From Callorhinchus milii (Eukaryota): a DNA stretch of 64,000 nt. Location: contig NW_024704742.1 in assembly GCF_018977255.1 (NCBI RefSeq), positions 99,078,001 through 99,142,000 on the forward strand. The letters run 5' to 3'. This document shows positions 2,941 through 64,000 of the stretch, one piece after another (positions within the stretch are counted from its first letter, which is position 1; each line of letters starts with the position of its first letter). The notes under the pieces were generated by a model. That model saw only the letters and a list, made by a program, of their open reading frames with translations, ran no database searches and was not told the DNA's origin. The position numbers and the translations under genes are program-made.

Positions 2941-3161
<221 letters not shown>

Positions 3162-3248
3162 CTGCGGGGCAAAAAAAGCTATGAAATTAATTGAAATTCA
3201 ATAGAAATTTGTTGTTAAACTCTTTATTCGGTTATCTTGCATACTTAC

Positions 3249-11600: not shown

Positions 11601-11710
11601 AATGAAATTTTGTATTTAGCCCAACCTTTAAAGATTTAAATATTTCAGAAAAATGGTTAGAAGCCCATCAGCACTTAAACATTTCAGAAAGTCCTGTGGA
11701 GTGGAGTCAG

Positions 11711-15000: not shown

Positions 15001-16159
15001 ATTCCTTAAGGACAAGCACACACCATGTTGCCAAAATAAACCATATGATGAGCTCAATTGCAGCACAAATCATTACATTTGGCCACAACCAATATCTTGA
15101 CTCACCAATGGAAGACAAGATTGTTCTACATTGATTTCACAAATCACCAGAAACAACAATTTTCATTTTTATAGGGATCTTCACACAGGCAGGATCTTGG
15201 AGCATGAAATATGGATCAACCAGTGAAAGACCTCACCACCAAACAGTGCAGTGATGCATTATATCCTGACAAATGCAGTTCATCTCCTGACAGCAGTGAG
15301 GAAGGAGGAGAAATACCACATAATAAAACATTTTTCCAATGGGAAACAGAGATTGCAACAAGACATGTCAGAGAGATTTCAAGCAGACTCCCCAGTTACT
15401 CAACCCCAATTACGTGTTAAGATAGCAATCAGATAACAATCATGTCTTCAAGCTACAAGATTGAACGAACAAAGCAATATGCAATCACTTGCTTTTAGTA
15501 CAACTCTGTGTTCAAGGGCATACCAGAAACAGATCACATTTCAAACTGGACTAACAAGCCCACTAATCTTCGTTGGGCTTGTAGTTCATGGAATGTAAAC
15601 TATTTTTACAGTACAGTATAGCTGATTTGAAATAAAAGCTCTACAAACTGATTTTTTATTTCATTTTGGTAAATGTAACTATCTGGTGATGTCACTAAAA
15701 TAACTATGAACCCATAGGATCAGCTATCCTTTCACAGTACGAGTGAGCATGTAAATTTGATTATTAAACTGTTAAAAAAAATAGAAACTGGATGTATACC
15801 AGTCAATGTCCCATGTAATCTTGATAAAATAAATGACACTTTGTTTGTGCATACCAGCACACCTACTAAACTTGCTGAAGAAAAAAGCTGTAGATTAGTT
15901 TAAAAAAATCAGAAACATTTTAGCTGAACCCATTGGATACCAATAACACCTCTCCTCAGGACTTGGGATTGATTTCCTTGAGCACTATATAAATGCAAAC
16001 AAGTTGTTTACGGTTACAGACAGAGGACAAAATGAAACACGTCAGCAACGGTGAAAATTTTCTATGTTTTTTTGGGAGGGGTTAAAATTTAGTAGAGTAA
16101 AATTTAAAAGCTATGGATCTTTAATGTACAGCTTGAATAGGTGCAAATTGTATATATTC

Positions 16160-18240: not shown

Positions 18241-18729
18241 TACTTACAAAATACAATACAAAATGACATTTGTACAGCACCTTTTACATCGGGAGTACTC
18301 GAGCGGGGTGGAGGGGGGTGGGGGAGGGGGGGGGGGAGTTAGAATCAGGAAGGGTGGCCAAAGGCACAGTCGAAGAGATGGTTCCATTTTACAGTATATT
18401 GACACCTTGAAGGAGGCAAGGAAGGCAACTTTGAAACATTAACATAATAAGACACTATATCAAATGCAAGTATTATTCATGATAATGCTTGCATTTGATA
18501 TAGTATTTTTCACAACAGGAATGCGTCTCAAAACTCTTCACAAGTGTAGGACTATTTGTATGCAAAAGGTCCTACATTCCATTTTGTTACTGCTGCTCTG
18601 GATGTGATCAGCAAACTCAGCACAGTGAAGATTGAATATGTGATTTAGTACAGGACCTTGATTGATTTCGAGAAAACAGTACACAACAACAACAGTTGCC
18701 AAATGTATTTTTAAACGGTTTTTGGGGGT

Positions 18730-19020
18730 CAGTCGGTCTGACACATGTGGAAATCCATTGCCATGCTTAAGCGTATCCAAACCAAACTGAGAATTCAATG
18801 CATCCACCTACACATGGAAATTCCAGAGATAGGCAATTGTTGGGAGTGGAATGCACACTCTCTGTCTGGCAAGCTTTCCCGCTGCTTGTCCAGCAAGGAT
18901 CATCCCACACTTTAGAGATTTGCCTTGCAGGGTTAACAGGAGCTGAGTGGGATCATTCTCTCCCCCCGCCCCCATGACTGATCTGCCCTTCCAAGTCCTT
19001 CCGATGAGCTGTGCCGTCAT
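18730..19020 (-). repeat. Unclassified interspersed repeat (copy 1)
   Basis: Colinear similarity to 62295-62720, and in part, on the opposite strand, to 45500-45640. Confidence 0.65.
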
Positions 19021-19869
19021 AATTTTCTTCCACTACAACTTTCCGACGAAGTCCATTCAAACTTCACTACTGTCTTCTGTCTGTTGTATATCAAGTGTCT
19101 TAATCCAGTGCTTTAAGCAGCATATTTTAACAATTTATACATTTTAAAATCAGTGTGTTTTCATGTGAATTGTCTCAGAATGTAAAAACACAATATTGTA
19201 AGCAAAAATATTTTCACCGGCTGAGATAGCAAAACACCTCACTGCCCTGTCCCTCCAGGCACCATAAGAGTCTTAATAATATAAAATATTGAATACTTCC
19301 ATTTTGTATAGTACCTTTCATATCAAGATTATGTCCCAGTGACTGTATTCTGTGTAGGCAAATGTGGTAGCCAAGTGGCACACAGCAATGTCCCATAAAG
19401 TGAACAACAATTTTTTTCAATGGGGGGAGAAAGGCCGAATACCAGGAGAAACTCCCTTCTGTTTGAATAGTGCAATGGGATCTTTGTAATACTTGGCTGA
19501 ACAGACAAGGGAACTTCAGTTTAACATCTCATCTAAAGGACGGCACCTCCAAAAATACCACACATCCCCAACACTGCTTTAGACTGAGTTCCAAATCCCG
19601 ATGTGGGGCTTGAACCCACAACCTTTGGGCAAAGGGTGCTGCCAACTGAGACTGACACACCAGATCTTCTATCCCTTGATCACAACATAAACCCTGTGTA
19701 AGACATTTAAATGACAAGGTATTCTTCCAACTTTTGAGGGAATGATTCAGTTCACATTTCTCCCCACAGCCAATTCCTCCCAAGGCACATGTGAACTGCA
19801 AATATAAGCCCTACATAGCTCTGATATTACTACTGTAGTAGGTTGGAAGCATGAAGCTGGGAGGTGGAT

Positions 19870-20665
19870 TTAAATGCTCCCCTGGGCGACGTCATCCACA
19901 GACACGGATCTAAACTCCTCAACCTCCCTAAGCTCTCCCTCAGACTCACCGAACCAGTGTGCAATCTAAGCATCCTGTTCGACCCCCAGCTGTCCTTCCT
20001 CCCCCACATACAATTCCTGATCAGGACCACTTTCTTCCACCTCCGCCACATTGCCTGCCTCCGACCGTACCTTACCCAAATGCAGGCGAAATTCTTGTGC
20101 ATGCATTTGTCACCTCTCACTTGGATTACTCCCAATGCACTCCTCGCCAGTCTCCCCAGCTCCACTATTCAAAAAATTCAGCTCATCCAGAACTCTGCCG
20201 CTCGCATACTTACCCGGACCAAATTTCGTCCCCACATCTTACCAGTTCTGGCCAGGCTCCACATCACTGATCGGATCGACTTCAAGATCCTCACACTTGT
20301 GTTCAAATGCCTTCGCTCCCTGGCACCTCCCTACCTCCCTTACCTCCTCACTCCCCAATCCACTACCCAGCGCCTCCGCACAACTGGCACTGACGTCTTG
20401 CTCGTCACTCACCCCTTGCATCCTCCTCTCCACCATTGGAGGTTGCGCTTTCAGCCACTACATCCCGAAACTCTGAAACACGCTCCCTCAATCTCCCCGC
20501 TTTGCTCCCTCTCTCCCCTTTATCAAGTCCCACCTGAACATCTTCCTCATCGAATGTACACCACCCCCACCCCAACCTCGGCTCGGAGTCAGTCTTCGCC
20601 ACTGTTAAGCGCTCTGAGACTCTACCCTGCATGGAGGGTGCTACACAAGTGCAAGTTGGTGTTGT
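19870..20665 (+). mobile_element. L2 LINE 3' fragment (second family)
   Basis: IQLIQNSAARILTRT, RIDFKILTLVFK; tail ACCCTGCATGGAGGGTGCTA...GTTG. Confidence 0.88.
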
Positions 20666-21444
20666 GGACGTGAATTTCTTCTAGGCAATATTTAGTTTAT
20701 AGTTAACCATTTATTTTCCAGGATTCTGCACCATTCAGGGGTAACAAAACAGAATAAAATTGTCTGGGACAGTTTGGAATTCAGAAAGTTACAACCTTAT
20801 TTTATGTGTTGTCAGAACAGTACAAAAAGGCATCAAAAGTTGCAACACAACTTCGTAAAACTGCTTGGCACCAGAATAACACTTACATAGTGATACCATA
20901 TGAATTTAACTGTGTTTTACATACAATAGTACTGAATAAACAAGCAATTATAATGATGCACTAATAACCAAATAAATGCATCCTTAAACTTCAGTTCCCT
21001 GCAGAGCAACATCATATTTCTTACAGCTAAACAATTCATTGGCAGCAATTAACCAACTAGAAATAAGTAATGAGTATTTCAATCATATAGTGACTTAAAT
21101 TTCAGTTCAAAAAGGTTACATAACCTAAACGTCAATGATCTCAGCACAAATGGTCTGCAGCTTCTATTTGTCAAATAGCAGCAAAGGGAATAAAGCACCT
21201 CAGCAGCCCACCATTTTGTCAAGACCACCAGATTCACTGCTCAAACATCACACGTATATTATTTTTTTTTAAATGTAGCAATCACATTCTTGTCTCTCTC
21301 CAATACAGAGCATTGTATTTCAAGAGGATAAAACATTGCTTTCAAAAAAGAGCAACATGCTAATTGAGATTTTCTCTTTTAAAAAAATGCTTGAACTTCC
21401 ATCAAACTATGTTTCGGACAAAATTAAAATGAATATACAATAAA

Positions 21445-21803
21445 ATAATAATCCTTGCATTTGATATAGCGCCTTATTGTGTTTTCGAGACATCTCCCAA
21501 GTGCTTCACAGAATATACTGCAGTGAATTGACTATAATGTGTGGGCAAAATGCAGCAGCCAATTGTACAGTTCCCACAAACAGTCGTGGATTGAGTGACC
21601 AAATTATTATTTTATTTATTCTTTGAAGGGATTATTACCCCCGGAAAAGTGATCCACCAACTACTGGGTTCCTACTTACTGCTGGGTGAACAGAGGCGCG
21701 TGGAGTAAGGAAACTTGACCAACATTTCGCCCTGCCCGGGAATTGAAACCAGGAACTCTCACTTGCGAGGCGACTGCTCTAACCACTAAGCTACAGGATT
21801 CTA
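21445..21803 (-). mobile_element. Same SINE family, long variant
   Basis: tRNA head and tail plus an extra internal ~60-bp segment (CAGCAGTAAGTAGGAACCCAG...). Confidence 0.85.
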
Positions 21804-22941
21804 CAACATAAAGATAGAGCAACATGCTATCATTATCCTACAAAAACCTCAAGTAGTGGTTATACTTGGATAGAGCTGCACACACGCACACCCATGTTAA
21901 AATTTAAGGCTTTTTACCAAAAGGCAAATGGTAAAGCACATTGCTCATCATGCAGGAGTCACCTTTAAGCTTACAATTTAAAATACCTGGAACTACTACA
22001 CAACATTTTTAAATGTTTAAACAAAAGCTTGAAAAGTAAGGAGTGAGTGACTTGGATGTGGGTCAATTGCACAAAAACTTGCTCATCAAATGTGCAAACA
22101 CGACATAGGCAGAAACTTTTCTTAAATGTGGAGCTAAGGAAAAACGCGACTGCTTAAGGAGCACAGAATAAAAGATCGGACATTTTACAAATTAAGAGAT
22201 TTTTTTTAAAAAAAAACAGAATAAAAACCTTGTGCCATTTCATCCGAAATGTTTGTTTTTTTCAGGAAAAAAAAGGATTGAAAAAAAAACGCTCAAACTG
22301 CGATTGGAAAACGAAAAATCTAGTAACGTCGACGGTACAATTTTTTTGTACCCCCCACCCCCCCCCCCACAAAAAAAATCCCAAGAATAAAAGCATTCAA
22401 GCAGCAGCACCAGGGGAATAAAGCAGCTGCTTTGTTAGTGTAGGAATTGCTGGTGTGTTGATTTTCCAATGCGGTGTTCCTGTCACACACTGAACTGGAG
22501 AGACAAAAAAAAATGGGGGGTTGGGGGTGGGGGGGAAAAAAAGGTTGGAGGTTTATAACGTCGACCTGGTAATTGGTCGGGAAAGTTTTGGAAAGTTACA
22601 TTCCCTTTGCTCGCAGTTCACGGGAGTGCAAACGGATGGGACGGGGACTCCATCCCCCACTGAGAGCAGCACAGGAGGAGCCTCTGCCATTGAGTGGGGA
22701 TCGCGCCTTTGTCTGCACAGCCCGTGTTACTGAGCACAGGGCGGGTGGGTGTGAGGCCACAGGGATAGGGAGGAGGGGGCTTGGGGGGGGGGGTGGGCGA
22801 AAAAGGCTCCTGTACATCTCCTAATTCTCTTATTTTTATACATATATATTGTTAACGCAAATAGACGGGGTGGTGGACTGCATATTGATTTCCATGTGCG
22901 ATAGCTGGAGTAAGGTTTACAGGCGCTGCCCCCCACCCCAC

Positions 22942-22972
<31 letters not shown>

Positions 22973-23377
22973 CACAGGGACGAACCTGAACCCTCCAGTC
23001 AGGCACAGCGACACCGCCTTCTTCCTATATATGGTCAGACAGTGGAGCGGCCTCTCCCCATTCAATGGTCGCCAACTCACACACTGCAGCACCAAACTGC
23101 ACCACACACACACACCACACAGAGAGACCGCTCGCTATCTAACACACCGCGACCGGGGTTAATGGGACTAAGACCAGGTCCGGCTTCGGTGCTGACCCAG
23201 TGACGGACTGGTCCCGTCACTTACACACTGCAGCACCTTCTTTTCCTTAAAAGGTACAACGGGAAATTCCGTAATCGCTAATGAAACGCGAGACTTTTAC
23301 TACCACCGCACCATCTCTTGAGCCATTCGGGGGCTTTCCAGTGGTTTATAATACACAAAGGTCCAGTGGCTATACCC

Positions 23378-24035
23378 CTGAGTGAGTGAGTGAGTGGGTG
23401 GGGGAGTGAGTGAGAGGGGTGGGGGGGTGAGTGAGGGGGGGGGGTGAGTGAGGGGTGGGGGGTGAGTGAGAGGGGGTGGGGGGGGTGAGTGAGGGGGGGG
23501 GGGGTGAGTGAGAGGGGGTGGGGGGGGTGAGTGAGGGGGGGGGGGTGAGTGAGGGGTTGGGGGGGTGAGTGAGTGAGGGGGGGTGGGTGAGGGAGTGAGT
23601 GAGGGGGGTGAGTGAGGGAGTGGGGGGTGAGTGGGGGGGGGTGAGTGGGGGGGGGGGTGAGTGAGGGGGGGGTGAGTGAGTGAGTGAGGGGGGTGAGTGA
23701 GGGGGGGGTGAGTGGGGGGGGGGGGGTGAGGGGGGGGGGGTGAGTGAGTGAGGGGGGGTGAGTGAGTGAGGGGGGGTGGGTGAGGGAGTGAGTGAGGGGG
23801 GTGAGTGAGGGAGTGGGGGGGTGAGTGGGGGGAGGGGGTGAGTGAGTGGGGGGAGAGTGTGAGTGGGGGGAGGGGGTGAGTGAGTGAGTGGGGGGTGTGA
23901 GTGAGTGGGGGGGTGGGTGAGTGAGGGGTGAGTGGGGGGTGGGTGAGTGAGGGGGGGGTGAGTGAGTGGGGGGGTGAGTGAGTGAGTGGGGGGGTGGGTG
24001 AGTGAGTGAGTGAGGGGGGGGGTGAGTGAGGGGGG
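23378..24035 (+). repeat. G-rich degenerate tandem repeat (GTGA/GAGT units + G-runs)
   Basis: ~660 bp essentially without C on the + strand. Confidence 0.95.
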
Positions 24036-24728
24036 GATCACAAGGCAGAGCAAATGCAATAGTTAAAGCTGGGGGGAGGGGGGTTCACAATTCGCCTATG
24101 TAACTCACACTCAGACGCGCATGAGGTCCCACTGCCCTCCTGGTGTCACGGGCATCGCTATCATGAGAGCTTTCTCCACAAATGGTAGAGGACAAACCAC
24201 ACTCTCAACCCCCTGTGCAATTGATTTGAATATGTAGAGCGCCCAAGACTTTTTTTTCGAAACAAAAAAAAACTCAAGTTTATAAGGGGAACTCTCTACA
24301 CAAATAGAGAGAGAGAGAGGGAAGGTGGGGAGGGGGGGGGGGCAGATTTAATACAGGACGCGACATTTTCACTGATAACTCGGCGATGAGTTTGCAATCG
24401 GTTGATCGCTTGCGGCAGTTTTTTTTGTTCGGTGCATTTTATATTAAAAAATAATGCAAAAAATGACCTCAAGATGCCATCGGAATACCTTGTCCATTTA
24501 AAGTCATTGCCAATGGGTGCACACGTTTCCGAATAAATCCAGTGCACTCAAACATCCCCCCCACACACACACACCCTCCCCCCCTCGTGTACCACAAACA
24601 CAGAGAGAGAGAGAGAGGAGGAGGGGAGGGGGGGTGGGGGGGGGGGGTAGAGGATGAACCCAGATTTAACACAGAGCAAAAAAAAACCAGAGACACGAAA
24701 TAAAAAAAAATCTGCTGAAATGATGATC

Positions 24729-24799
24729 ACAACAATAACAATAAATAATAATAAACAAGAATAATAAATAATAACAAATAATAATAATAAATAATAATA

Positions 24800-24835
<36 letters not shown>

Positions 24836-24976
24836 TAATAATAAATAATAAATAATAATAAATAATAATAATAATTAATAAAAAATAATAATAACAAATA
24901 ATAATAATAAATAATAATAACAAATAATAATAACAAATAATAATAACAAATAATAATAATAAATAATAATAATAAT
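24729..24976. repeat. (TAA)n-type microsatellite
   Basis: ~250 bp of imperfect AAT/AAAT repeats ~40 bp into LMNB1 intron 1. Confidence 0.95.
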
Positions 24977-25020
24977 TGAGCCATGACTTTGCAGTGGGCT
25001 GAGCCGGGAGCCGGACTCAC

Positions 25021-25388
25021 CTCTGCAGGAGGCCGTCGTGGTCGCAGCGGCTGGTGCTGAGCTCGATCTGGAGCCGAGCCCTCTCCTTGGCCGTCTCGTC
25101 CAGGGACTGGCGGGCGTCGGCCAACTCGGTCTCGTACAGACTCCTGATGCCGCTGAGCTCCCGGGTGCTGACCTCCTCCCTCTCGGAGATCTGGAGCTGC
25201 AGGAGGCTGTTCTGGGACTCCAGTGAGCGCACCGCGTCGATGTAGACGGCCAGACGGTCATTCAGGTTCCTCAGCTCGTCCTTCTCCTGCAGGCGGCTGA
25301 TGCGGGTGGGGCTGAGCGGAGTGCCCCCCCCCGAGCTCCGGCTGCTCGCCCGGGGGTGGGGGTGGCTCTTTGGAGTCACCGTTGCCAT
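25021..25388 (-). CDS. LMNB1: Lamin B1, coding exon 1 (head + coil 1A/1B start)
   Basis: ATG at 25388; [51 protein letters not shown]... has the lamin CDK1 site (SPTR) and the coil-1A signature [16 protein letters not shown] donor at 25020-25015; 368 nt, phase 2. Confidence 0.96.
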
Positions 25389-25979
25389 TTGCACCCAAGA
25401 AATTATCGAGGCGGCGGGTGCGGGGTGGGTGGGTGGGTGGGTGGGGGGGGGGGGGGAGTTATTATTTTTTTGTGTGCGGGGGGTGGGGAAGAAGGAGGGA
25501 GGGAGGGGGTTAATTTTTTTTTGTTAGTTGATATTTATGGGGGTGGTGGTGGGGGGGGTTTTCTTTAGAAAAATAGATTTTTTTTAAAAAAGAGAGGAAA
25601 GGAAAAATAACTTTTTTTGTGTGGGGGGGGAGGGTGAGGGGGGAGGCTGTTTTTTTTAAAAAAGGGATTTTTTTAAAAAAAATCGAAGGGGAGGAAAGGG
25701 GGGGTAAAAGTGGGAAGGTGGTGGTGGTGGTGTGAGGGGAGGGTGGGGTGGTGGTGGGGAGGGAGGGGGGGGGTTACATGCAACACCCAGAAAAGAGTAA
25801 AAATAAGGTTAATAATACAAAAAAGAAAGCACTAAACGAATGCAAAGAGAGAGGGAAGCAGTTGGTTACTCAGTGCAGTGCAATGCAGTCTCTCTCTCTC
25901 TCTCTCTCTCGCTCTCTCTCTGCTGCTCCTCACTATAATCCACAACCTTTTCCCTTCTCCACAAAACTGCTGACTGACT

Positions 25980-38045: not shown

Positions 38046-40108
38046 GGTCTAGCGTCGATTGTAACAATTTGGTGGGGTAACTGACTATCTATAATAAGGT
38101 TCACCGTTTCCCTATTGGGTTACTTTAAGGATGATTTTGATTGGACTATAAAAAAGGCACCAATTACATCAAGTAACTGGTGCAATACAATTACCTAATT
38201 CGGGGAGGGCCTCAATGCCCATAAAAGAACGAGTGCCATGTTCTCAGGGTCGTTATTTTTACTTGATGACATCAAAAGGTGACTGTTGATGAGGAATAGT
38301 CCTTTAGGTCAGGGATTGGGTTTTTGTGCACTTTACATTAACTTCATTACAAGTGGCTGTTTGTGTGTTCAGTTTAAGTGTGATTAGTGTTTTTATTTCA
38401 TAGTTGCATTTGTTGATATTTATCTTATCGTTTAAGATTTAATAGCGAGGGCTGTAGATTTCATCGTAACTACAATAAAATTCCGTTGAGTTTTCTTGAC
38501 TGTGCTTTCTCAAGCTTTCTGTATAAATCAAAGAGGGTTGAGCCTACGTCACAGTCTATTTAGAATAAAATAATTCATTAATCGAGTTTCACCTAAATAT
38601 AGGGATTTGCATTAATTTAGTGAGGATTCAACAGAGGCTACCCAGTACAATCTGCGAGGGGGAGCGAGCCATATCGTGGGTGTACCTATAGAGGTATAGA
38701 ACTGTTTCAAGTTGGCGGCAATACCAATACGGTAGAGGACTATGTCCCAGGACTCGTTTTGTTATTCATGTCATATAATTCTTAAAAACAATCAACTTAG
38801 CTTCAATCACCACTACGGCAACACATCGCACATCCCAATAAGGTGTGTCAAAATAATTAAAAATTATAGATTTCACCCCTTCCCTCAGGCTGAATATGCT
38901 GTCAGTCAAAAATGGTGACTGGGGTGAGATACTGGAGGGGAAATCAATACCTCTCCAACTGCACCCCAGCACAACTCAAGTAGTCAAAGAAACTCCACCT
39001 GTATAACAGTACAATAAAAATTAAACGATTCAACTCTTGAACTAATCAACTATGAAGGATTTGTTTTGTCCTTCACAGGGTGAATGTAGCCAAATGAACA
39101 GATTGGAAGAGGGCAATTGCCTGTTACACTGTTAGATCTAAATTCCATGCTTTTTTCCAGTAACAAAATTGCTGTTTTGCTACTCTATTATCTAATATTG
39201 TATATTTGTCATTCACTTCACTGTGCGCATATTAACTGTTGCTTTTGCTTACAGATATCACTACAAATTACAGTATATCCTTTGAAGCGCTTTGAAACAT
39301 TTTTACGACATGAAAGGCACTTTTTCAAATGCAAGGAATTTTAATATTTCTACATAATTGTAACCTGCAGGTAGATTGTACCTAACCCATCAGATCAATG
39401 TTTCAGTAGAGATACAACAAGACACATCTGGTTACCTGCAGAATGAGCAACTTACAAATCCTTCTGCAAATCTCACAGACTCCAATCTTACCCTTTACAG
39501 GCTTTAGTACAAAAAACTAGCAGACACACCATTTTAAATGCACTCAAATTTGGATTTTAATACAATATTTATACCTTTTTGTAATGAAAATAGAAATGGC
39601 AAATTCAGTGCCAAATATGTTGTTTGCAAAGTGTAAAAAGTGTACATTCAAATCTATGTAGCAGACCCAGTGTAAGAATTATTACAATTCATAGAAGTGG
39701 AAAATACAGCAATAAAATGTCATAAAAAGGTACATTGCTTCAAATATAATCTTTTAGGAACAGGACGATTTCCCTCCATTTAATTCATCTTCAACATATA
39801 TACAAGTTTGAGTGTATAGTGTAAACTACCCAGTACTTCTCTGTATAAATATTATGCACAGTGAAAATATATCCTTCACAACACTCGGAATATTCTATCT
39901 GCATCTCAACATTGCCTCAGTCATCTTGAAATCTATTTTAACTTCAGGTATCAAAGGTGCATACTATATTTCATTCCCTGCAATGTGCTGGGTGAAATGG
40001 AAAATGTTAATATTCATCAATACTGACTGCCATTTGAAAACAATTCAGTATGTAACCTGGAGTCTCTCTTCTAAAACCCACTGCTGTCCAGGAAATCTAG
40101 TTGTAAAA

Positions 40109-40265
40109 TTAAATCACCCCAAGCTGCTGGAGAACCTTTTTTTCTGCTCGCCTGTCTAGGATTCTCTGTCGGAACACAACAATGATACTAAACACTATCC
40201 CCACTAAAAACATAACTCCTTCGAACTTCCAAAACTTCAGTTCCTCCATTTCAACTGAATGACAG
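40109..40265 (-). CDS. JTB-like gene last exon (transmembrane helix + basic tail)
   Basis: 157 nt to TAA: CHSVEMEELKFWKFEGVMFLVGIVFSIIVVFRQRILDRRAEKKVLQQLGVI*, with the JTB hallmarks FWKFEG...RQR.LDR. Confidence 0.9.
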
Positions 40266-41433
40266 CTGGTAAGAGAAAAAAAACAAGAGTTATCTATCGT
40301 CAAAAAAAATCAACATTAAAAATGCTTCTCTGGGAAAAAGGTAATTTCCTACTACATTCAACCACATAAGGTGAAACAAAAATCAAAAAGCTGGGTTAGT
40401 TTGACGATTCATGTAATGGCAGGCCGTGATGCAAGGTTTCAAAGATGCATTCAATATTTTAGAAGAACACAGAAGATAAACAATACAGTTGAGTGAAACA
40501 CATTTTTGTACTTCAGTGATGAAAGTGATCATAGAAGGAAGTCTATTTGAGGGATCCTCAAGAGTGAAATTTAGAATTAGCATTTGTCGGTTTAGCACCT
40601 TATGTAGGCTATTTATATCAGATGCTTTTATGAATGACGAAGATAGTCATATAAAGCAAAAATGCACCTTAGGCAAAGACCCAAATATTTGCGTTATTAT
40701 TAATAATTATTTTATTACATGACTGTAACAAAGCTAGATAACCTAATTTCTATTTACTGTACTTGCATTGCTGATATCAGCAATCATTGGATTTATACAA
40801 ATTCCTTTCATGATTCTAACAAACAGAATTTTAAGAATGAAGTTTACAACTAGTATAAGCAAACATACTAAAGTCACATATATTGACAGAAACCTGAAAT
40901 TCCAGCAATACCAATAAAATTGTATATTTCAGTATGTTAGAATGAGATTCTGGCTCTAGCTTTATGTTTGGAGCACTCTGCAATTCTTGACATAAATACA
41001 AGGATGAGGATGATGGGTTGTTCATCTGAGCTGTAGGATGACAGGGACATATTTGAACACTCTGAACTCTCCATAGCTAGCAAGATCAAATCTATAGCCA
41101 GCAAGATCAAAAGCATAGCCCCAGGGTTAAATTATACCAAATCTTCCAAGTTGACACCACTATATTGGAAGCAAGACAGACAGGATAGGAATTGGAAAAT
41201 TTGCATTTAGGTCTAATTATTAGCCAACAAGTTAACATACTGACATTTTCTTCTTCTTTATCTCTCTCCCATGAAACAAATTCATATCCACAAATATGTC
41301 CACTTAGGTTGTTAGCAATAAACTCAAACAGCTAAACAATTTGCAATTTTAAAAAAAAGTGCCAGTAAATGCAAAGAATACATTCCAAGCAGAAAATACA
41401 AACTGAACTGAAAGAACCAGGATGGTGCCTCAC

Positions 41434-41507
41434 CTCCTGTATCTTTGGTCAGATACACACTTTATTTCTTCCACAAATCCAGTTAAAGTACATTCAATAT
41501 GCATTGT
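41434..41507 (-). CDS. JTB-like gene exon 5
   Basis: 74-nt AG/GT exon: TMHIECTLTGFVEEIKCVSDQRYRS, matching JTB KTTPECGPTGYVEKITCSSSKRNEFKS. Confidence 0.87.
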
Positions 41508-42924
41508 CTGCAGAAAGATAAAACACAAATTAAGGATTAATATGTCAACTTTCACTGTCTAAACTTGCACATGATAATATAATAGGCTTGGAATTCAAGG
41601 AACTATACCCCAGCATAAATTATAAATCAGGAGAGAAGTAGGAGAAAAAAAAGAGAATCATCTTATGTGAAAAAAATGCTCATCTTCCACTGGTGGCCTT
41701 TTTCTTGGTACAGTGTCAGTTTGGCTCAGGAAATATAACCTTGCCTCTTCTACTGAAGATAATGATTAATGCAATAATTTGCAATAATCCTTGCATTTGA
41801 TAATAACATGCTGGGGTACAATTCCAAAGTGCAAATAGTTATTTTGTTACCATGTCCAAATGGTTATTCTTTACTAATTAGAATTTCCTAACTAATTAAC
41901 AGTTGGAAAGCGCAAACTTCAAATTCACTCAAATATGTTTTATTGGGAATTGTGGTACAAAATCTATTTTTTCAGCAGTGGCCAGCTGTCAAAAATAACT
42001 GCAAACTCAAACCTATTCCTCCAGGTCTGGTCATTATACTGAAATTGTTTTACTGCCAATAAATTTACATTATCTGTGTTACTAATGTCACCCTCTGGCC
42101 AGTAAATGAATTGCAATGATAACATATTAATTCTGTGATGCGCTGTTAAGTATTGGAAATGTTGCAATATTATAGAACTTACCACAGCAAACAGCAGGTA
42201 ACATGTCCATTAGATAATATTAGTTCACTGAATTAATTATAAATATCTTCTTTATAGAATATATTGTGGGTGTTGTGAAGCTGGGTTTAAAGAACAACAA
42301 CAAATTGCATTCATAGAATGCCTTTCATGTCCCAAGGCACTGACATTTAAAGCAATTCAATATATATTTCTATTTTTATTCTTTTATTAATTTATTATAC
42401 ATTAAATTTCTAATGGTGCAATTAGTCATGAAAACATGCCTACTTCCATTTTATTTATAAGCCCAAATATTATCGATGGCCACAACTATCATACAAAGTG
42501 CCAATCAATACAACAAAATTGAGGATACATTAAGAATCAGCTTGGCTCATTAGACATTCCCTTAACACCGGGTCAGAATCCAACCAATAGCATCCCAACC
42601 AAGGACCAATTTGGAAATGCTCAACAATAACTCTCCACTGAGATCTTCAGATTGTAAGGCATAGGTTAAGAAGTACACAATAAATATGAAACTTCATGTG
42701 AAGAAAGCTGGCGAGACTTGCATTGTGCTGCTTGTCTGCACCTCTTAACAAGTTGTTATAAAGCAGTAGCTTCTACCCATCAGTGTTAAAACTCACAAAT
42801 ACCAAATACAGGACCAAAGAAAATAACATTATTGTGAACATGCTTTCACAACTTAACGGCTAATTTAGTCCTAAAATAAATTCTGCAATAATACACTGTA
42901 GAAATGTTGTTATTCGTACAGTAC

Positions 42925-43008
42925 CTTCTCATGATCAGAGCATTCAGTGCACTCTCTTATGATGCTATACTCATCTGTTTCCCAGCAAGGTCTTGGGCAA
43001 AGAACTTG
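42925..43008 (-). CDS. JTB-like gene exon 4 (Cys-rich ectodomain); apparent +1 frameshift or alternative acceptor
   Basis: RPCWETDEYSIIRECTECSDHEK matches JTB LPCWLVEEFVVAEECSPCSNFRA; 84 nt from the CAG acceptor, 83 needed for phase. Confidence 0.82.
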
Positions 43009-43231
43009 CTGTTTAGTTAAGAAAAACAAAAACAAAACTGTAACATTTTTTTCCATGAACTAAAATGTGTCAAATGTTATTTGCAGCAGTATTTTGTAAC
43101 CATGACATGCTAATGTTGAAAATAAAAAAAATTCAACAACAACTATGATTCTGCATTTCAACATCCTCTGTTTCTACGCATTTTCTGGTTTGAAAAGCAT
43201 GGTTTTATATCTGACCATTCAGAGTACTTAC

Positions 43232-43272
43232 AAGTGTTTATTTGTGATTGCGGTGGTGCTGCTTCACATAAC
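43232..43272 (-). CDS. JTB-like gene exon 3
   Basis: 41-nt exon, TTTTAG acceptor and GTAAGT donor: LCEAAPPQSQINT, resembling human JTB LCQAEAPVQEEKLS. Confidence 0.78.
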
Positions 43273-43479
43273 CTAAAATGATACATACAGAAAGTTCAAC
43301 TAAATATAAACACTTAGGCAAGCCGACCATTTATTTGTTTTTCTTAAGTTTTATGGAACTTGTTTTTAACTTATAAAATTGCATAACTATTATAAATTCC
43401 CGGGTGGGCAAAACCGTAGGCAAATTTCCTTATTCCACACACCTGTTTTATCTATCAAAAATTGCCTCAAAATTTGAAA

Positions 43480-45148
43480 ACATTCACTTGGCTGCATTGT
43501 CGGCCCCCACGATGTCCCCTTCCACCCTACCCAGACTATCCACACTGCCTTCTCTCTCCGCCACTGCTCCAGCTATTCCCCCCTCCTTACATTTTTTTGC
43601 CCCCATTTCTCTCTCCTTCCTCTCAACCACAATCACCCGGATGAAGTTCACCACTGCCACCTGACCCCCTCCCCATCCAGCTGCAGGTCACTGAACTTCC
43701 CCATCTCTCCCCACTGCTGGCCAACACGGTCAACCAGTCTCTCTCCTCAGGCTGTGTTCTACAGCCCCTGAAAACCACTGTTATCACACCCCTTCTCAAA
43801 AAAACCACCCTCAATCCCTCTAATCTCTCACACTACTGTCCCATTTCCAGCCTACCCTTCCTTGCCAAAGTCCAGGAAGGCATTGTTGCAGGTCAACTTC
43901 GATCAAACCTCTCCCTCCTCGAGCTCCTGCAGTCTGGTTTTTACCCACATCATAGAGACAGCGCTTGTCAAAGTCACAAACGAAGTCCTCTCTATCTGTG
44001 ACCAGGGCTCCCTCTGCCTCCTCGTCCTCCTGGATCTCTCTGCCACGTTTGACACAGTCGACCACGGCAGACCACGGAGGACCATAGGCTCTCCTCCCTC
44101 ATCTACCTTAGTGGGAACGCACTTGCATGGTTCGAGTCCTACTTAACCAACCGCCCCTTCTTCTACTAATCTATATGCTCCTTCTGGGTGATGTCATCCG
44201 CAGACATGAGGTAAACATGTAGACGGATGACACACAATTCTACTTTGCCTCTTCCAGATCAACTCCAGGTCCGCCGATGTTCTATCAGCTTGTCTGGTAG
44301 ACATCATGGCCTGGATGAGTGTAAACTTCCTGCAGCTGAATATGGACAAGACGGAAGCCATACTCCTTGGCTCCCGTCAATGTCTTCACTTCTGTGGATC
44401 TAAACTCCTCAACCTCCCTGGGCTCTCCCTCAGAATCATCGAACCAGTACGCAACCTAGGCATTCGGTTCCACCCCCAACTGTCCTTCGTCCTCCACATC
44501 TGGTCCCTGACTAGGACCGCTATCTTCCACCTCCGTCACATTGCCCAACTCCGACCATACCTTACCCCAAATACAGCCAAAACCCTCGGCAATGCATTTG
44601 TCACCTCCCGCCTGGATTACTCAAATGTACTCCTCGCCGGTCTCCCCAGCTCCACCAATCACAAGATCCAGCTCATTCAAAACTCTGCTGCCCGCATACT
44701 ACCCGGACCAAACTCCGTACCCACATCTCACCAGTTCTGGCCAGGCTCCACTGGCTCCCCATCCCCGAACGGATTGACTTCAAGATTCTCACGCTCGTGT
44801 TCAAATCCATTCACTCACTGGCACCTCCCTACCTTTCCGACCTTCTCACTCCCCAATCCACCTCCCAGCACCTCCGCTCGACTTGCACCGGCCTCCTGCG
44901 CGTCCTTTGCACTCTCCGCCCCACCATTAGAGGTCGTGCTTTCAGTCGCTAATCCCCCAACCTCTGGAACACTCTCCCTCAATCCCTCCACCTTGCCCCC
45001 CCCCCTCTCCCCATCTGAAAACTTTCCTGTTCGACCATGCTTATAGCCTCCTCCCCTCTCCCCAGAGTTAGGCTCCGCCACTTTTAAGCACTCTGTGTGA
45101 CGCTACCCTGCATGGAGGGTGCTATATAAGTGCAAGTTGTTGTTGTTT
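43480..45148 (+). mobile_element. L2 LINE remnant in a JTB-like intron
   Basis: ETALVKVTNEVL...[36 protein letters not shown]; (TTG)n tail. Confidence 0.9.
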
Positions 45149-45727
45149 TATCAGTAAGTAGGAACCCAGTTGTTAGTCGATTGCTTTCCAGGGGGATTAA
45201 TAATTTATTCCAACAAATAAATAAATAATTTGAATACTCAGTCAACATCTGTTTGTGCGACACTGCTGTGCGCAACTGGCTTCAGCATTTCGCCCAGAAA
45301 ATATACAGTCAATTCACTTTACAGTATATTCTGTGAAGCACTTTGAGAATTCTCAATAATGTGATACAGCGTTACATCAAATGGAAAGATAATTATTATT
45401 ATTAAATGCTTTTTTAAAAAAAATTGGGAGTACCCAGAATGGTGCATTGTATTAAACGATTTAATATGCTACCTATATTAGCTGTAGATAGGAGGAAGGT
45501 GGCACAGACCAGCTCGCCTGGCTCATCAGCAGAATTTGCAAGAGCACACAATTCTTCCCATTTGGCTTATGTTAACCCTGCAAGTCAACAGGTAGCGTGG
45601 TCCTAGTTGGACAAGCAGCAGAAAGCTTGCCAAACAATGCAATAATAATAATCCTTGCATTTGATATAGCACTTTATCATGTGCTATATCAAATGTTGTC
45701 GAGACATCTCAATAATGCTTATTTTAC

Positions 45728-45842
45728 CTGAGTAATGTGAACATGCTCCAAAAAGTGGATAGATATGCCAATACGGACACAAACTCCAACTTCTGCCACA
45801 TTTTCTCTTTTTTTGCTTCCCCAACGTGGCCTCTCAGAGATA
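45728..45842 (-). CDS. JTB-like gene exon 2 (signal peptide)
   Basis: Polypyrimidine-CAG acceptor and GT donor; VSLRGHVGEAKKEK then MWQKLEFVSVLAYLSTFWSMFTLLR; internal ATG at 45801 begins a hydrophobic signal-like segment; phase 2 end fits the next exon. Confidence 0.75.
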
Positions 45843-46619
45843 CTGCAATAAAAAGATGAATTTTTAGCAACCTCATTGGTTGAAAAAGTCAAATGTTTTT
45901 GATGTATTTGGTTAATAAAATCATCAAAAACGTTAGAAAGCTTCTTCTAGCGATACCTAGGAGTGAACTATAAAGCCGAAGCCTAAATCAGATGTTTCAT
46001 ATTGTCAAAGGAGCGATATCGAATGTAAGTATTATAATATTTTATCATATGGCCTTATTGTGCCATTGAGACGTTCAAAGCACTTCACAGAATATATTAC
46101 CTCACGCAAGTCCTTACTCCACACACAAGCCTCTGTTTACCGAGCAGTAAGTAGGATCCCGGTTGTTTGTTGATTAGTGGATCAGTTTTCCGAGGGTAAT
46201 AATCCCTTCGAAAAAATAATTTGGTCGCTCAATCCACGACTATTTATGGGCCACTGCTGTGTGCAATTGGTTGCCACGTTTTTCCCACAAAATACGATCA
46301 CTCCACTTTACGGTACAGTCTATGAAGGCGGTTTGAGATGTTTCAAAGACGTGATAAGACCCTATATCAAATGCAAGAATTATTATAAACCAGAAGTAAA
46401 TTACCGAAACCTTAAACTTAGATTGCATTAACCCTACATCTGACACCAATTACGGATTGTCTACCTCGTTCATTGCATCCTACGCTGTCATATGTGTCTC
46501 TCTGACTCTGACTTGGCCAGGCTCTGTGTCTCTGTCTGTCTCTCTAAGTCTCCTGTTGTCCTAGGCTGTGTCTGACTGAATCATGCTCTGTCCTAGGCTC
46601 TGTGTCTATGTCGCTCCGT

Positions 46620-46910
46620 CCGTCTGTCTGTCTGTTTCTCTCTCTGTCTCTCTGTTTCTCTCTCTGTGTCTGTCTGTTTCTCTCTCTGTCTGTCTCTCTC
46701 TCTCTCTGTTTCTCTCTCTCTCTGTCTCTCTCTCTCTCTCTGTCCTAGGCCCTGTGTCAGAGTCACTGTGTGTGTGTGTCTATCTATACAAGGGGACATG
46801 TACCTGTGACTGTGTGTCTCTATTGTCTGGTGTGTGTATGTGGGTATCTTTGTGTGTGTTATTGTCTGTGTATTATGTCTCTCTGATCTCTTTCCTGTCT
46901 GTGTCTCTCT
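46620..46910. repeat. (CT)n/(GT)n compound microsatellite
   Basis: Direct reading; immediately inside the first JTB-like intron. Confidence 0.9.
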
Positions 46911-47200
46911 CAGGTTCGAATCACCCCGGACAACGCGACCGGATCTCTGACGTCACTCACCGGAAGCGCTCCGAGGGCGGGGCGGATGCCGGCTGATGGA
47001 CATCCCGCCGGACCAACCGCGTGGCTCTGAACGCCCCCCCCCCCCCCGTGAGCCAGTGACGTGGAGGCGAGCCCGGCGTGGCCAGGGGCGTGGCTAAGAT
47101 GCTGAGTTGCGCGGCAGACAATGGAGCGGGTGTGGCCCCGCCCCCCCACAGGGGCTGTCAGTCACTCAGCGCTGGCTGGGCACGCGCTGCTCACGTGGGA
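46910..47200. promoter_or_regulatory. CpG island / promoter of the JTB-like gene
   Basis: Dense CpG in an otherwise CpG-depleted region; GC boxes (GGGCGG), palindromic CRE TGACGTCA 46948-46955, ETS-like CCGGAAG 46960-46966, E-box CACGTG ~47192. Confidence 0.75.
46961..47003 (-). CDS. JTB-like gene, putative coding exon 1 (in CpG island)
   Basis: gcgggATG at 47003, MSISRHPPRPRSAS, strong GTGAGT donor; 43 nt phase 1, in frame with the next exon; could instead be 5' UTR. Confidence 0.6.
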
Positions 47201-51137: not shown

Positions 51138-51350
51138 CTATGAACGAGCTCTGGCCCAACGGGTTAGCACTAAGCTCCGGTGTTTGGACATGTGGGAGCT
51201 TAGAGGTAGTTGCAGAATTGTTCCCGGGGTCAAATGGTTCATTTGATCTTCGAGGCATTTCCTGTCCTGTCCATGGCAAAGCCGTTCACGCTTCGACCAG
51301 AACAAGCTCTCCTCGGTAAAGTCATGAGGTATCTTAGCAAGTGCTTGATG
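51138..51350 (-). CDS. TEX43: TEX43 / SPMIP10 (sperm microtubule inner protein) last exon
   Basis: CAG acceptor; HQALAKIPHDFTEESLFWSKRERLCHGQDRKCLEDQ...LPLSSHMSKHRSLVLTRWARARS*, resembling human EDSLFLNHSERLCHGEDRK...PLHSPLSRYQSTVI; AATAAA downstream at 51020-51015; syntenic position. Confidence 0.85.
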   Translation of the reverse strand, partial: HQALAKIPHDFTEESLFWSKRERLCHGQDRKCLEDQMNHLTPGTILQLPLSSHMSKHRSLVLTRWARARS

Positions 51351-51635
51351 CTGAGAAAAGAGTTCCGGCAAATCAGACAAAATTAATTTAGATTTCTGTA
51401 CTAGTTTCTGTACAATAAAACCTGCATAAGTCTGATCTGTATAATCATGTAAGCGCCTAAATTGTACATCTGCCCAAGTCCTGTTCAAGAGTTTATATTC
51501 CATACAAGTTTGACATAATCTGGGCCAATAGAAAAGTGTGGAAATATTTGCCAAAAATTGCGATGAGATTTGAAAATTGTGGGGATGTTTTGACAGATTT
51601 TGCAGAAAATGGTGGGGAGTTGTTTGGTGCTATTC

Positions 51636-62720: not shown

Positions 62721-63409
62721 TCATCAGAAGTGCCCTGGAATACTGTGGATCCGCCTGGCTCAGGAACCAGTCTACCAAGACCACCACAGATGTTGGCTCG
62801 ATTCCAACATTCCATTGCCAGGCTTGTCATCTTGGAGCCTGTTCAGCTCCAAGGAGACCTGGCTTATATTGGACTAGACTTTGAGCTCGACATCCCGATA
62901 GTGGACTCAAATCCACAACCTTCTGATTCAGAGACCTGGCTCAAATATGCAAATAACATTGATTTATTGGGTACAATACGCCTGGGAAATTTAATGCCAA
63001 TTAAAATCCATTCTGTTCAAACACAAATTTTGTCGATAAAATATAGTCAATTCACTTTACAGTATATTCTGTGAGGCACTTTGAGATGACTCAAAGACGT
63101 GATAAGACACTATATCAAGGATGCAAGGATTATTATTATGGTGTTCATAAGTTTGAACGGAATGTAAATTTCAAAAGTACGGTCAAAGGGGTGCGTTTTG
63201 AAATGTACCTTGAAAGATGGGAGGGAAGGAGAGAGCAAGTTGGAGGGACTTGGGAATTGAGTTTCAGAAAGCAAGCGCCAACTGGCTGATAGCCTGCCTA
63301 CCGATAATGAGGTGGACAGTAACAGCCAGGTTAGTATAGTAAAAGAGATATAATGAATAAATTTACTTGATGCTGCTTAACAAAATACTGAAAAGATTGG
63401 CATGCTGAC

Positions 63410-63493
63410 CTTTATTTGATCATGGGTGATGCTTGGCATGTTCTTCAGTAAGTTCAGGTAGACCCCACCAGGTGTTCTTCGGCGACTGCCGTC
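63410..63493 (-). CDS. PHAX: PHAX penultimate coding exon (RNA-binding domain)
   Basis: 84-nt AG/GT exon: DGSRRRTPGGVYLNLLKNMPSITHDQIK (RRTPGGV motif of the PHAX RNA-binding domain). Confidence 0.95.
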
Positions 63494-64000
63494 CTGCAGG
63501 GAAGAAAATGTAATTATGTGACATAATAAGTGACATGCCTCGCCAAAGAAAATTCCAAACAGCATCCTAACGGCATGCAATTGCAACTTCACTGATCGCA
63601 CAACTGGTGACAGTACACAAACCCTGGATTATCAGCTCTGCCACATTCATTTCCTGTGCATTCGCACAGAAAGCCGCCAGCATTGGAATACGTAACCTAA
63701 CCTATCAGTGTGAGTAGGTTTGATTTGTGCATTATCACTTTCTGCAATACTCTCAGTGTGCAGAAATTGATGTTGGCAGCAATCTGATGATGTGGATATT
63801 GGATATGTGGTTAAAAAAAAACTTGGTAAAGTGTAGCTTTTCAATCCTTTGTTTCTCATTTTATGGACTTAATTAATGGTTCAAGAAACAGCTATCGCAC
63901 AACTTATTGTGGTTTTATAACTAGATTTCACACACTTCCTAGATGATTAAGTACTAGAACATTTTATTTTAAAAGTTCCTACTATCCAAGTACCCGACAA

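Follow-up and report, generated by a model that had tools for sequence, protein, structure and literature searches.

Human JTB is located at 1q21 and has been described as having a signal sequence (PMC12292960). The four lamin subtypes of vertebrates (A/C, LIII, B1, and B2) have been ascribed to two whole-genome duplications, with lineage-specific losses (PMC4448529). A gene of the JTB family is encoded next to a B-type lamin in a stretch of 64,000 nucleotides from the chimaera Callorhinchus milii (assembly GCF_018977255.1, contig NW_024704742.1, positions 99,078,001 to 99,142,000; hereafter, the window). It is highly probable that this gene is an intact-looking and transcribed JTB (142 amino acids in the transcripts) representing a second lineage that predates the split of the jawed vertebrates; whole-genome duplication is a plausible origin. 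The protein resembles human JTB in its hydrophobic N-terminus, six-cysteine ectodomain, FWKFEG motif, single transmembrane helix, and short basic tail. It differs in being about 38% identical to mouse-type JTB and in belonging to the other of two vertebrate clades, termed here clade A (including the window's protein) and clade B (including canonical, human-type JTB). Further differences are that clade A carries EELKFWKFE and RRAE motifs of its own, that its cartilaginous-fish members are without two residues between Cys5 and Cys6, and that the window's gene adjoins LMNB1 rather than lying in a 1q21-type region.

The window's gene belongs to the JTB family. When its exons were translated one by one and compared with the Pfam JTB model (PF05439; gathering cut-off 22.1 bits), exon 4 matched profile positions 10-31 (E 5.8e-5, 23.6 bits), exon 5 matched positions 39-56 (E 0.031), and exon 6 alone matched positions 62-110 (E 3.8e-14, 53.1 bits), the matches running consecutively along the profile. 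The full-length UniProt protein A0A4W3IRF7 (P0001, 'Protein JTB' of C. milii), to which the window's last exon is a 100% match, carries PF05439 in its precomputed annotation. Of the JTB architecture that a preliminary description of the locus had read from its letters, the six ectodomain cysteines, FWKFEG, one hydrophobic helix, and the RQRILDR tail were recovered; the Kyte-Doolittle peak (3.16) spans residues 107-121, after FWKFEG, and is followed by RQRILDRRAEKKVLQQLGVI. In an alignment of 53 sequences ranging from sponge to mammal, the cysteines (C46, C58, C61, C72, C83, and C92) are invariant, as are F102, W103, F105, R123, and L127. Additionally, P0001 aligns to the human JTB ectodomain (PDB 2kjx) at E 3.8e-9 with 6/6 cysteines aligned. 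An AlphaFold model (mean pLDDT 81.0) predicts helices at residues 2-28 and 95-141, with a low-confidence linker (residues 29-40) after the N-terminal helix. Among the 178 PDB matches to this model returned by Foldseek at E <= 10, 2kjx was the only one at E <= 0.001 (E 1.9e-4, probability 1.00, target TM-score 0.66, rmsd 3.1 over 62 columns); the next-best match had an E value of 1.4. The predicted model shows the ectodomain to share the fold of human JTB, and the hydrophobic N-terminus is probably a cleaved signal peptide.

Table 1. Positions of the JTB-like gene, its flanking features, and its neighbours, numbered from the first letter of the window.
Feature	Position	Strand	Remarks
CpG-rich patch, candidate promoter	47000..47199		GC 0.72, CpG observed/expected 0.72 in a 200-base bin
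Exon 1 of the preliminary description	46961..47003	minus	upstream ATG, in frame; not supported as coding
Non-coding 5' exon	46101..46244	minus	one RNA contig (X4 record 24); at least 144 nt, contig ends there
Exon 2	45842-45728	minus	AG/GT borders; 41 nt 5'UTR, start codon, hydrophobic N-terminus (MWQKLEF...)
Start codon in exon 2	45801-45799	minus	ATG checked in sequence
Exon 3	43272-43232 (41 nt)	minus	AG/GT borders; linker from N-terminus to ectodomain
Exon 4	43008 or 43004 to 42925	minus	AG/GT borders; PCW..EC..C
Exon 5	41507-41434	minus	AG/GT borders; EC...GFVE.IKC
Exon 6	39647..40265	minus	coding sequence 40265-40109 and 3'UTR of at least about 460 nt
Coding part of exon 6	40265-40109	minus	SC, FWKFEG, transmembrane helix, RQRILDR tail, TAA stop 40111-40109
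B-type lamin (LMNB1 by position), downstream neighbour	2111..25523	minus	runs off the window
Lamin exons	25020-25523 (exon 1), 4971-5225, 3201-3452, 2925-3197, 2111-2365 (lamin tail domain)	minus	
TEX43/SPMIP10 exon, upstream neighbour	51141..51629	minus	Pfam SPMIP10-like PF14983, E 8e-8, 32.8 bits (cut-off 27)
PHAX exon, further upstream	63380..63628	minus	Pfam PHAX_RNA-bd PF10258, E 8.8e-10, 38.9 bits (cut-off 25)

The gene is real and transcribed, and the junctions between its coding exons (Table 1) have RNA support from exon 6 to exon 2. Record 18 of X3 and record 24 of X4, both contigs, place the boundary of exon 6 exactly at 40265 and join this exon to exon 2; the 198 nt that separate the two exons there correspond to exons 3-5. 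Judged from depth, 59+15 = 74 nt of exon 5 and 39 nt of exon 3 are covered in X3 and in X4, with 2 nt more credited to exon 2. Exon 2 is covered by these two contigs and by X2 record 15, and at the 3' end X1 record 2 extends to 39647 and X2 record 10 to 39666. It should be noted that the RNA nature of the sequencing runs is a guess, for which the spliced contigs argue, and that introns are covered at low depth in X1 and X2, a sign that unspliced RNA or DNA is also present. The one contig shown that extends 5' of exon 2 is X4 record 24, whose positions 752-895 correspond to the non-coding 5' exon and are spliced straight onto exon 2 (at 45842). The 5' exon is followed at 46100 by a GTAATA donor, and the UniProt model P0002 also reads through it.

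The preliminary description had proposed six exons, the first of them coding and carrying the start codon, downstream of a CpG island belonging to the gene. The CpG-rich patch is present upstream, and the five coding exons are in place with AG/GT borders. The proposed first exon has a GT donor and a frame open into exon 2, but the transcribed 5' exon and the starts of most homologues lend it no support as a coding exon. The methionine of exon 2 is the first residue of the 142-aa UniProt model and of most homologues from sharks and rays, the exceptions being Heptranchias, which aligns three residues later, and Leucoraja, the model of which begins further upstream; the start codon of the window's gene is located in exon 2. 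Nor is the gene hidden, as it had been called, since UniProt already lists it under the JTB name and NCBI annotates its shark relatives as 'protein JTB-like'. Exon 4 is 83 nt long in the transcripts and 84 nt in the window, where the run at 42995-42997 contains one additional C. The transcripts use a CAG acceptor (43008), and P0001 reads SSSLPRPCW. Applied to the window sequence, this acceptor results in a frameshift that meets a stop 10 codons into exon 4, whereas an AAG acceptor 4 nt downstream (43004), the only frame-keeping acceptor in this assembly, yields a protein of 141 aa with all motifs.

A careful tree with invertebrate outgroups was calculated from 57 rows and a short alignment of 147 columns. 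The window's protein falls in clade A (14 rows, support 97/96), apart from human-type JTB on the other side of the tree. Within clade A, the cartilaginous fishes (100/98) and a group of the form (Latimeria,(Huso,(gar,bowfin))) (99/88) branch in an order that mirrors the species tree. All 34 clade B rows lie on one side of a branch, with support for their monophyly of only 66/90, and cyclostomes join clade A with only 88/77; tunicates, Limulus, Pycnogonum, and Oscarella are outside the vertebrate group (80/81). Among the nine clade A rows shown, EELKFWKFE precedes the membrane in eight (EEVKFWKFE in Leucoraja) and an RRAE-type tail is found in seven (RHAE in Leucoraja, QKAE in Latimeria); clade B rows differ at both sites. 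Clade A is represented in the chimaera and in sharks, rays, coelacanth, sturgeon, gar, and bowfin. Cartilaginous, lobe-finned, and ray-finned fishes thus occur in each of the two clades. This distribution and the position of the tunicates place the duplication after the tunicate split and before that of cartilaginous and bony fishes, with moderate support at the base. None of the 84 unnamed 50%-identity cluster representatives in a 126-row quick tree fell in clade A, and neither the searches nor this tree revealed a tetrapod or teleost member. The proposed loss in mammals agrees with these searches, and the proposed retention in cartilaginous fishes also stands; the lineage is not confined to them, given its presence in coelacanth, sturgeon, gar, and bowfin.

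A second, canonical JTB of C. milii is represented by UniProt V9LC25 (P0203), which is 44% identical to the window's protein over 97 aa and 52% identical in the region of the last exon; although of the same species and family, it belongs to clade B. Both JTB types were found in 10 species (Cetorhinus, Mustelus, Chiloscyllium, Heptranchias, Narcine, Latimeria, Atractosteus, Huso, Amia ocellicauda, and Callorhinchus), on contigs of different length in 9/9 species with lengths given for both copies. Records from sharks, rays, coelacanth, sturgeon, gar, and bowfin named 'JTB-like' or 'JTB' (P0003-P0011 and P0016-P0019) are orthologues of the window's gene; their names are automatic, and NCBI applies the two inconsistently across the clades. 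Among cartilaginous fishes, clade A proteins are 63-68% identical; the four bony-fish members are 40-48% identical to the window's protein in a full-length alignment and show BLAST local identities of 44-53%.

The preliminary description had named two observations that would speak for a translocated gene and against a paralogue, namely that this be the only JTB of the genome and that it be a 1:1 orthologue of human JTB. In the assembly, the locus does appear to be the only one: neither the Pfam JTB model nor either of two canonical JTB proteins matches anywhere else, no canonical JTB was found there, and UniProt names the gene's product 'Protein JTB'. This result misleads, since the assembly lacks the canonical gene, which nevertheless exists in C. 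milii as V9LC25, which is sister to the canonical JTBs of sharks and rays at the base of that group (100/97), while the closest grouping of the window's protein is with second copies from nine other species. A single JTB moved to the LMNB1 region is thus scarcely credible, and 1:1 orthology with human JTB is ruled out by the placement of the two C. milii proteins in different clades. A duplicate that arose within the cartilaginous fishes, which contribute 10 of the 14 clade A rows, is equally implausible: both clades include a protein from each of coelacanth, sturgeon, gar, and bowfin, the EELKFWKFE and RRAE-type motifs are shared with bony-fish clade A, and an AU test rejects a tree that unites all 22 cartilaginous-fish rows in a single clade (p-AU 0.00065; log-likelihood 45.0 lower). 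The group constrained in this test was named after the quick tree had been seen, and it restates the grounds on which the preliminary description would itself have been refuted. That description's reading of the gene as a paralogue was upheld. It is improbable, if less remotely so, that the gene is a fresh pseudogene of this individual or assembly, with a real extra C in exon 4 that breaks the frame of the normal transcript. The early stop reached from the acceptor in use would fit such a lesion, as would the absence of one base from the UniProt model P0001 and from two contigs, which derive from separate samples of a single study. A one-base difference in a short C run could be an assembly error, and the downstream acceptor restores the frame. 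Moreover, long-term constraint is indicated by the 63-68% protein identity between the chimaera and sharks and rays. Were the extra C a real allele and not an assembly error, the copy of this individual would be damaged or dependent on the AAG acceptor.

The gene order in the window is PHAX, TEX43/SPMIP10 (SPMIP10 being the newer name of TEX43), the JTB-like gene, and the B-type lamin, all on the minus strand, and Pfam and PDB matches of the neighbours bear out the position first described, between TEX43 and a B-type lamin. The lamin has matches to Pfam Filament (E 7.5e-24, exon 1) and to the lamin tail domain LTD (E 9.1e-4), and the best PDB match of its coil-2 exon is Lamin-B1 (3tyy, 1.6e-11) over lamin A/C (1.7e-8). 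In human, canonical JTB lies close to LMNA (1q22). Since the window's gene is directly upstream of LMNB1 and canonical JTB is near LMNA, a linkage seen for the canonical gene in human only, the early vertebrate whole-genome duplications are the most likely date of the split between the clades; a block duplication would predict that JTB and a lamin are linked in two paralogous places. A duplication of the same age but of small scale, or a transposition that landed beside LMNB1, is unlikely, if the strongest of the competing accounts. The tree dates the split and says nothing on mechanism, no paralogous block around both copies is in evidence, and three neighbours are identified in the window. 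Against a small-scale origin, the gene retains an intron-rich structure of five coding exons and is therefore no retrocopy, the subtypes of the neighbouring lamin are ascribed to whole-genome duplications as cited above, and the human genes for JTB and lamin A/C lie near one another. With whole-genome duplication as the preferred origin, the JTB pair would match the lamin pattern of duplicates kept or lost by lineage, with the difference that only two JTB lineages are seen and that their link to the duplications is drawn from position.

While the fold, topology, and descent of the clade A protein follow from the comparisons above, its biochemical role is suggested by analogy with JTB. The literature searches found no paper that treats these proteins as a distinct ancient paralogue and no functional tests of clade A. 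The window's protein, a member of a lineage that split from canonical JTB between the tunicate and the cartilaginous/bony fish divergences and was kept in the groups listed above, probably works as a type I membrane protein of small size that crosses the membrane once. Its layout consists of the hydrophobic N-terminus, the six-cysteine ectodomain, the juxtamembrane FWKFEG, a C-terminal transmembrane helix, and a basic tail of 20 residues. The disulfide-locked ectodomain and the short cytosolic tail would bind partners, as in the case of JTB in cell division and mitochondrial function, and the clade-specific motifs at the membrane and in the tail suggest a changed set of partners. A second JTB lineage that was already in the databases under JTB and JTB-like names is recognized here as an ancient paralogue.

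Five minus-strand exons with AG/GT borders between positions 45842 and 40109 make up the body of the JTB-like gene in the window. When translated singly, exons 4, 5, and 6 match the Pfam JTB profile (PF05439) in consecutive profile order, and the spliced product has the complete layout of a JTB protein, with a hydrophobic N-terminus, six ectodomain cysteines, the motif FWKFEG, a single strongly hydrophobic helix, and a basic tail. Among UniRef entries, the last exon has a 100% match in A0A4W3IRF7_CALMI ("Protein JTB", Callorhinchus milii; hereafter P0001). The window thus comes from the elephant shark, and the gene, which the preliminary description had presented as hidden, is already annotated in databases, where such proteins carry inconsistent names.

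Four sequencing runs (X1 to X4) were used as transcript evidence; no listed run is recorded as RNA and these four were guessed to be so, and only contigs that bridge introns were relied on. Two contigs, X3 record 18 (860 nt) and X4 record 24 (895 nt), start in the 3'UTR, follow the window to exactly 40265, and resume at 45842-45726, the two segments being separated by 196 letters of the record. Two letters (GT) fit both the start of the intron and the start of exon 3, which brings exons 3 to 5 to 198 nt. Covered exon lengths were derived by arithmetic from bin depths, each contig having one depth figure, and amount in both X3 and X4 to 39 (+2) nt for exon 3 and 59+15 = 74 nt for exon 5. In exon 4, coverage stops after 72 of the 83 nt, reaching 42996, whereas the window has 84 nt from a CAG acceptor at 43008. 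As the 72 covered bases end at 42996, the window's CCC at 42995-42997 is CC in the transcripts, and the UniProt model P0001 (142 aa, with SSSLPRPCW) agrees with the transcripts in having one C fewer at this place. In the window as assembled, use of the CAG acceptor leads to a frameshift and an early stop, and the frame is kept only by an AAG acceptor at 43004. The extra C is either an assembly error or an allele.

The 5' end also differs from what had been proposed. Upstream of exon 2, X4 record 24 runs onto 46101-46244, a segment followed by a GT donor at 46100, and not onto 47003-46961, where the preliminary description had placed a first exon with the start codon. The exon-2 Met (45801-45799) is the first residue of the 142-aa UniProt model and of most homologues from sharks and rays; in Heptranchias the alignment starts three residues further on, and the Leucoraja model has its start further upstream. 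Because of these homologue starts and of the 5' exon at 46101-46244, the upstream ATG is unsupported as a start codon. None of the 32 pieces and 15 joints listed, with a further 40,943 pieces and 238 joints outside the listing, connects 46961 to exon 2; the segment 47003-46961 may still serve as a 5'UTR exon.

The 5' exon lies within a repeat-rich stretch (45094-46478) of very high contig depth, up to ~315,000 in X1. A 22-nt repeat core has 25 occurrences in the window at ≤3 mismatches, compared to 0 expected. Within the first intron, 46540-46800 is a long AG/AC-rich simple repeat of GAGAGAGACA-like units, with reads cut at 46607-46752. Intron 2 contains, at 43377-45102 on the plus strand, a GC-rich block (GC 0.55) with strong negative GC skew and a 271-aa open frame (44231-45046) that has no Pfam match, the depth of RNA contigs there being in the thousands; this block looks like an interspersed repeat.

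Neighboring genes were scanned with the 150 longest of 328 entropy-filtered open frames, out of 349 frames of at least 60 aa in the window. A lamin coil-2 exon matched the PDB entry for Lamin-B1 (3tyy) at 1.6e-11, better than lamin A/C at 1.7e-8. SPMIP10 is an alias of TEX43, and the order in the window (PHAX, TEX43, the JTB-like gene, lamin B1) agrees with the human order, PHAX-TEX43-LMNB1, from which the preliminary description had also started; its placement of the gene between TEX43 and LMNB1 is borne out. Reverse-transcriptase (RVT_1) fragments in the first lamin intron and between the genes are retrotransposon remnants.

Features of the window, with the two further lamin-type loci of the assembly (G000).
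Feature	Position	Strand	Remarks
PHAX_RNA-bd exon	63380-63628	minus	Pfam
SPMIP10-like exon	51141-51629	minus	Pfam
JTB-like exon 2	45842-45728	minus	AG/GT borders
JTB-like exon 3	43272-43232	minus	AG/GT borders
JTB-like exon 4	43004 (or 43008)-42925	minus	AG/GT borders; Pfam JTB positions 10-31, E 5.8e-5
JTB-like exon 5	41507-41434	minus	AG/GT borders; Pfam JTB positions 39-56, E 0.031
JTB-like exon 6, coding part	40265-40109	minus	AG/GT borders; Pfam JTB positions 62-110, E 3.8e-14
Lamin exon 1	25020-25523	minus	Pfam Filament, E 7.5e-24; 100% identity
Lamin, start of tail domain	2111-2365	minus	further rod exons also found
Lamin-type exon 1 (L012)	G000:C21:937119-937373		68% identity
Lamin-type exon 1 (L011)	G000:C26:4603948-4604199		49% identity
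22-nt repeat core copies	45645-45666, 46365-46386, 47258-47279, 47330-47351
RVT_1 fragments	17066-17898, 36150-36746, 49840-50145, 52375-52731, 53240-53536, 59028-59279	both

Six cartilaginous-fish proteins, used as a profile, matched 49 of 4612 candidates, and a search with the canonical shark JTB (P0039) gave 260 among 266, of which 120 were listed. Two types of JTB are found among these proteins: clade A, a second vertebrate lineage that includes the window's gene, and clade B, the canonical lineage that includes human JTB. Among the matches listed, one protein of each type is present in at least 10 species (Cetorhinus, Mustelus, Chiloscyllium, Heptranchias, Narcine, Latimeria, Atractosteus, Huso, Amia ocellicauda, and Callorhinchus), and the two types are on contigs differing in size in all 9 species with figures for both copies. 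A quick tree of 126 rows (the window's product, 41 named proteins, and 84 unnamed representatives, these being the members of 110-250 aa among the 101 proteins P0050-P0150), from which the isoforms and fragments P0002, P0012-15, P0027, P0044, and P0049 were left out, divides the vertebrate group (support 96) in two: clade A, with 15 rows (SH-aLRT 93), and all its other rows; the 84 unnamed representatives all lie outside clade A. A more careful tree was built from 57 chosen rows and 147 columns, with the window's product, 13 further clade-A and 34 clade-B proteins (the latter picked mainly from the 120 listed P0039 matches to span groups), 3 cyclostome sequences, and 6 invertebrate outgroups. 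Clade A is recovered at 97/96, with its cartilaginous fishes at 100/98 and the grouping (Latimeria,(Huso,(gar,bowfin))) at 99/88. The clade-B cartilaginous fishes form one clade (100/97), in which the C. milii protein V9LC25 branches first, all 34 clade-B rows fall on one side of a branch (66/90), and the cyclostomes join clade A weakly (88/77). Forcing all 22 cartilaginous-fish rows together, a group named after the quick tree was seen, is 45.0 log-likelihood units worse (p-AU 0.00065).

The alignment separates the two types independently of any tree. Of nine clade-A rows shown, eight have EELKFWKFE before the membrane (Leucoraja has EEVKFWKFE) and seven have an RRAE-type tail (RHAE in Leucoraja, QKAE in Latimeria), and clade-B rows differ from clade A at both sites. 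In addition, the clade-A proteins of cartilaginous fishes have two residues fewer between Cys5 and Cys6. By the careful tree, the JTB split is vertebrate-specific and predates the divergence of cartilaginous and bony fishes. Current names do not follow this split: NCBI uses "JTB-like" for clade A in Cetorhinus, Chiloscyllium, Heptranchias, Mustelus, Narcine, and Huso and for clade B in Mustelus, Huso, and several teleosts, and it uses "JTB" for clade A in Leucoraja, Hemitrygon, S. canicula, Latimeria, and Amia. The names thus mix two genes in fishes, and orthology-based transfer of function or expression data can go wrong.

Whether C. milii itself has one JTB or two depends on where one looks. 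In the assembly (991.5 Mb; the window is C1:99078001-99142000), searches with the Pfam JTB model, the canonical shark JTB, and the canonical C. milii protein found only the window's locus above noise. Weak Pfam JTB matches at C1:64.27 Mb, C10, and C15 (E 0.5-6) are low-complexity or unrelated frames without JTB motifs and were taken as noise; protein queries gave further weak matches at four loci (L007-L010, E 0.98-9.3). A 104-aa open frame (L002) was weighed as a candidate retrocopy but discarded, as it has neither a cysteine pattern nor FWKFEG. UniRef holds a second C. milii protein, V9LC25 (P0203, 158 aa), which was found as a relative of Scyliorhinus torazame JTB and shares 44% identity with P0001 across 97 aa. 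Its gene was not found in the assembly, where only the window's locus matched, at 52% identity; since a match of 52% was detected, one of 100% would easily have been seen, so it is the assembly and not the species that lacks the canonical gene. The possibility raised in the preliminary description, that this is the only JTB in the genome, thus holds within the assembly alone but not for the species, and for genome scans in general such a test would mislead where the canonical gene is absent from the assembly. The canonical gene of other cartilaginous fishes is often on small contigs of 8-12 Mb.

The origin of the two genes may be read from their lamin neighbors. The four vertebrate lamin subtypes have been ascribed to two whole-genome duplications, and a loss of lamin A/C in Callorhinchus is stated in the same source (PMC4448529); human JTB is placed at 1q21 (PMC12292960). 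Only three lamin-type exon-1 loci were found in the assembly. Against human lamin A, those on C21 and C26 score 124.8 and 76.7 bits and the window's exon itself 120, so that these scores leave the subtypes unseparated. A Pfam LTD search of the assembly gave no match, although the window holds a lamin, the exon-split domain being too short per exon. Given that the clade-A gene adjoins a B1-type lamin, that the lamin subtypes stem from two duplications, and that human JTB is linked to LMNA, the simplest reading is that JTB and lamin were duplicated as a block. Given the same linkage, and with canonical JTB not found in the assembly and lamin A/C reported lost, the two may share one unassembled block in C. 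milii rather than having been lost. A fuller reading, which we advance tentatively and at somewhat below even probability, is that early whole-genome duplications gave two JTB genes, one in an LMNA block and one in an LMNB1 block; that the LMNB1-linked copy has been under constraint for >400 million years in the slowly evolving chimaeras, sharks, rays, coelacanth, sturgeon, gar, and bowfin and disappeared through at least two independent losses, in teleosts and on the tetrapod line; that the single JTB of lampreys and hagfishes may be an orthologue of this copy and not of human JTB; and that canonical JTB and lamin A/C, both of which seem to be absent from the elephant-shark assembly, would lie together in a single unassembled block and would not have been lost.

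It is well known that sharks, gar, and coelacanth retain duplicates which tetrapods and teleosts have lost, and the surprise to specialists should therefore be modest. The JTB family is known and the window's gene is in databases; what it adds is a second lineage that is equally old in vertebrates. PMC12292960 treats JTB as single-copy and conserved from nematodes to humans and uses "JTB2" for human isoform 2. A literature search for a JTB paralogue, in which most matches to "jtb" dealt with other matters, returned no paper recognising two ancient JTB lineages, though genome papers may list this gene among those that tetrapods lost, and a search on lamin synteny returned no paper matching all terms.

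With regard to function, the six cysteines of P0001 all line up with those of the human JTB ectodomain structure 2kjx (alignment E 3.8e-9). An AlphaFold model of P0001 from a 53-sequence alignment (mean pLDDT 81.0) shows, in order, an N-terminal helix at 2-28, a linker at 29-40 that is modelled with low confidence, a small domain rich in strands at 46-91, and a long helix at 95-141, and in a Foldseek search of the PDB with this model (178 matches at E ≤ 10), the only match at E ≤ 0.001 was again 2kjx (E 1.9e-4, target TM-score 0.66). The window's protein would thus be a type I single-pass membrane protein built like human JTB. Human JTB is reported to interact with Aurora kinases A and B, to be functionally associated with the chromosomal passenger complex, and to act in the cell cycle, in mitochondria, and in apoptosis (PMC12292960). 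The two clades have the fold in common and differ in the juxtamembrane and tail motifs, which in the window's protein possibly point to altered partners. Clade-A JTB adds a marker for the paralogous LMNA and LMNB1 regions, and the two JTB paralogues can naturally be compared to learn about a protein that is poorly understood.
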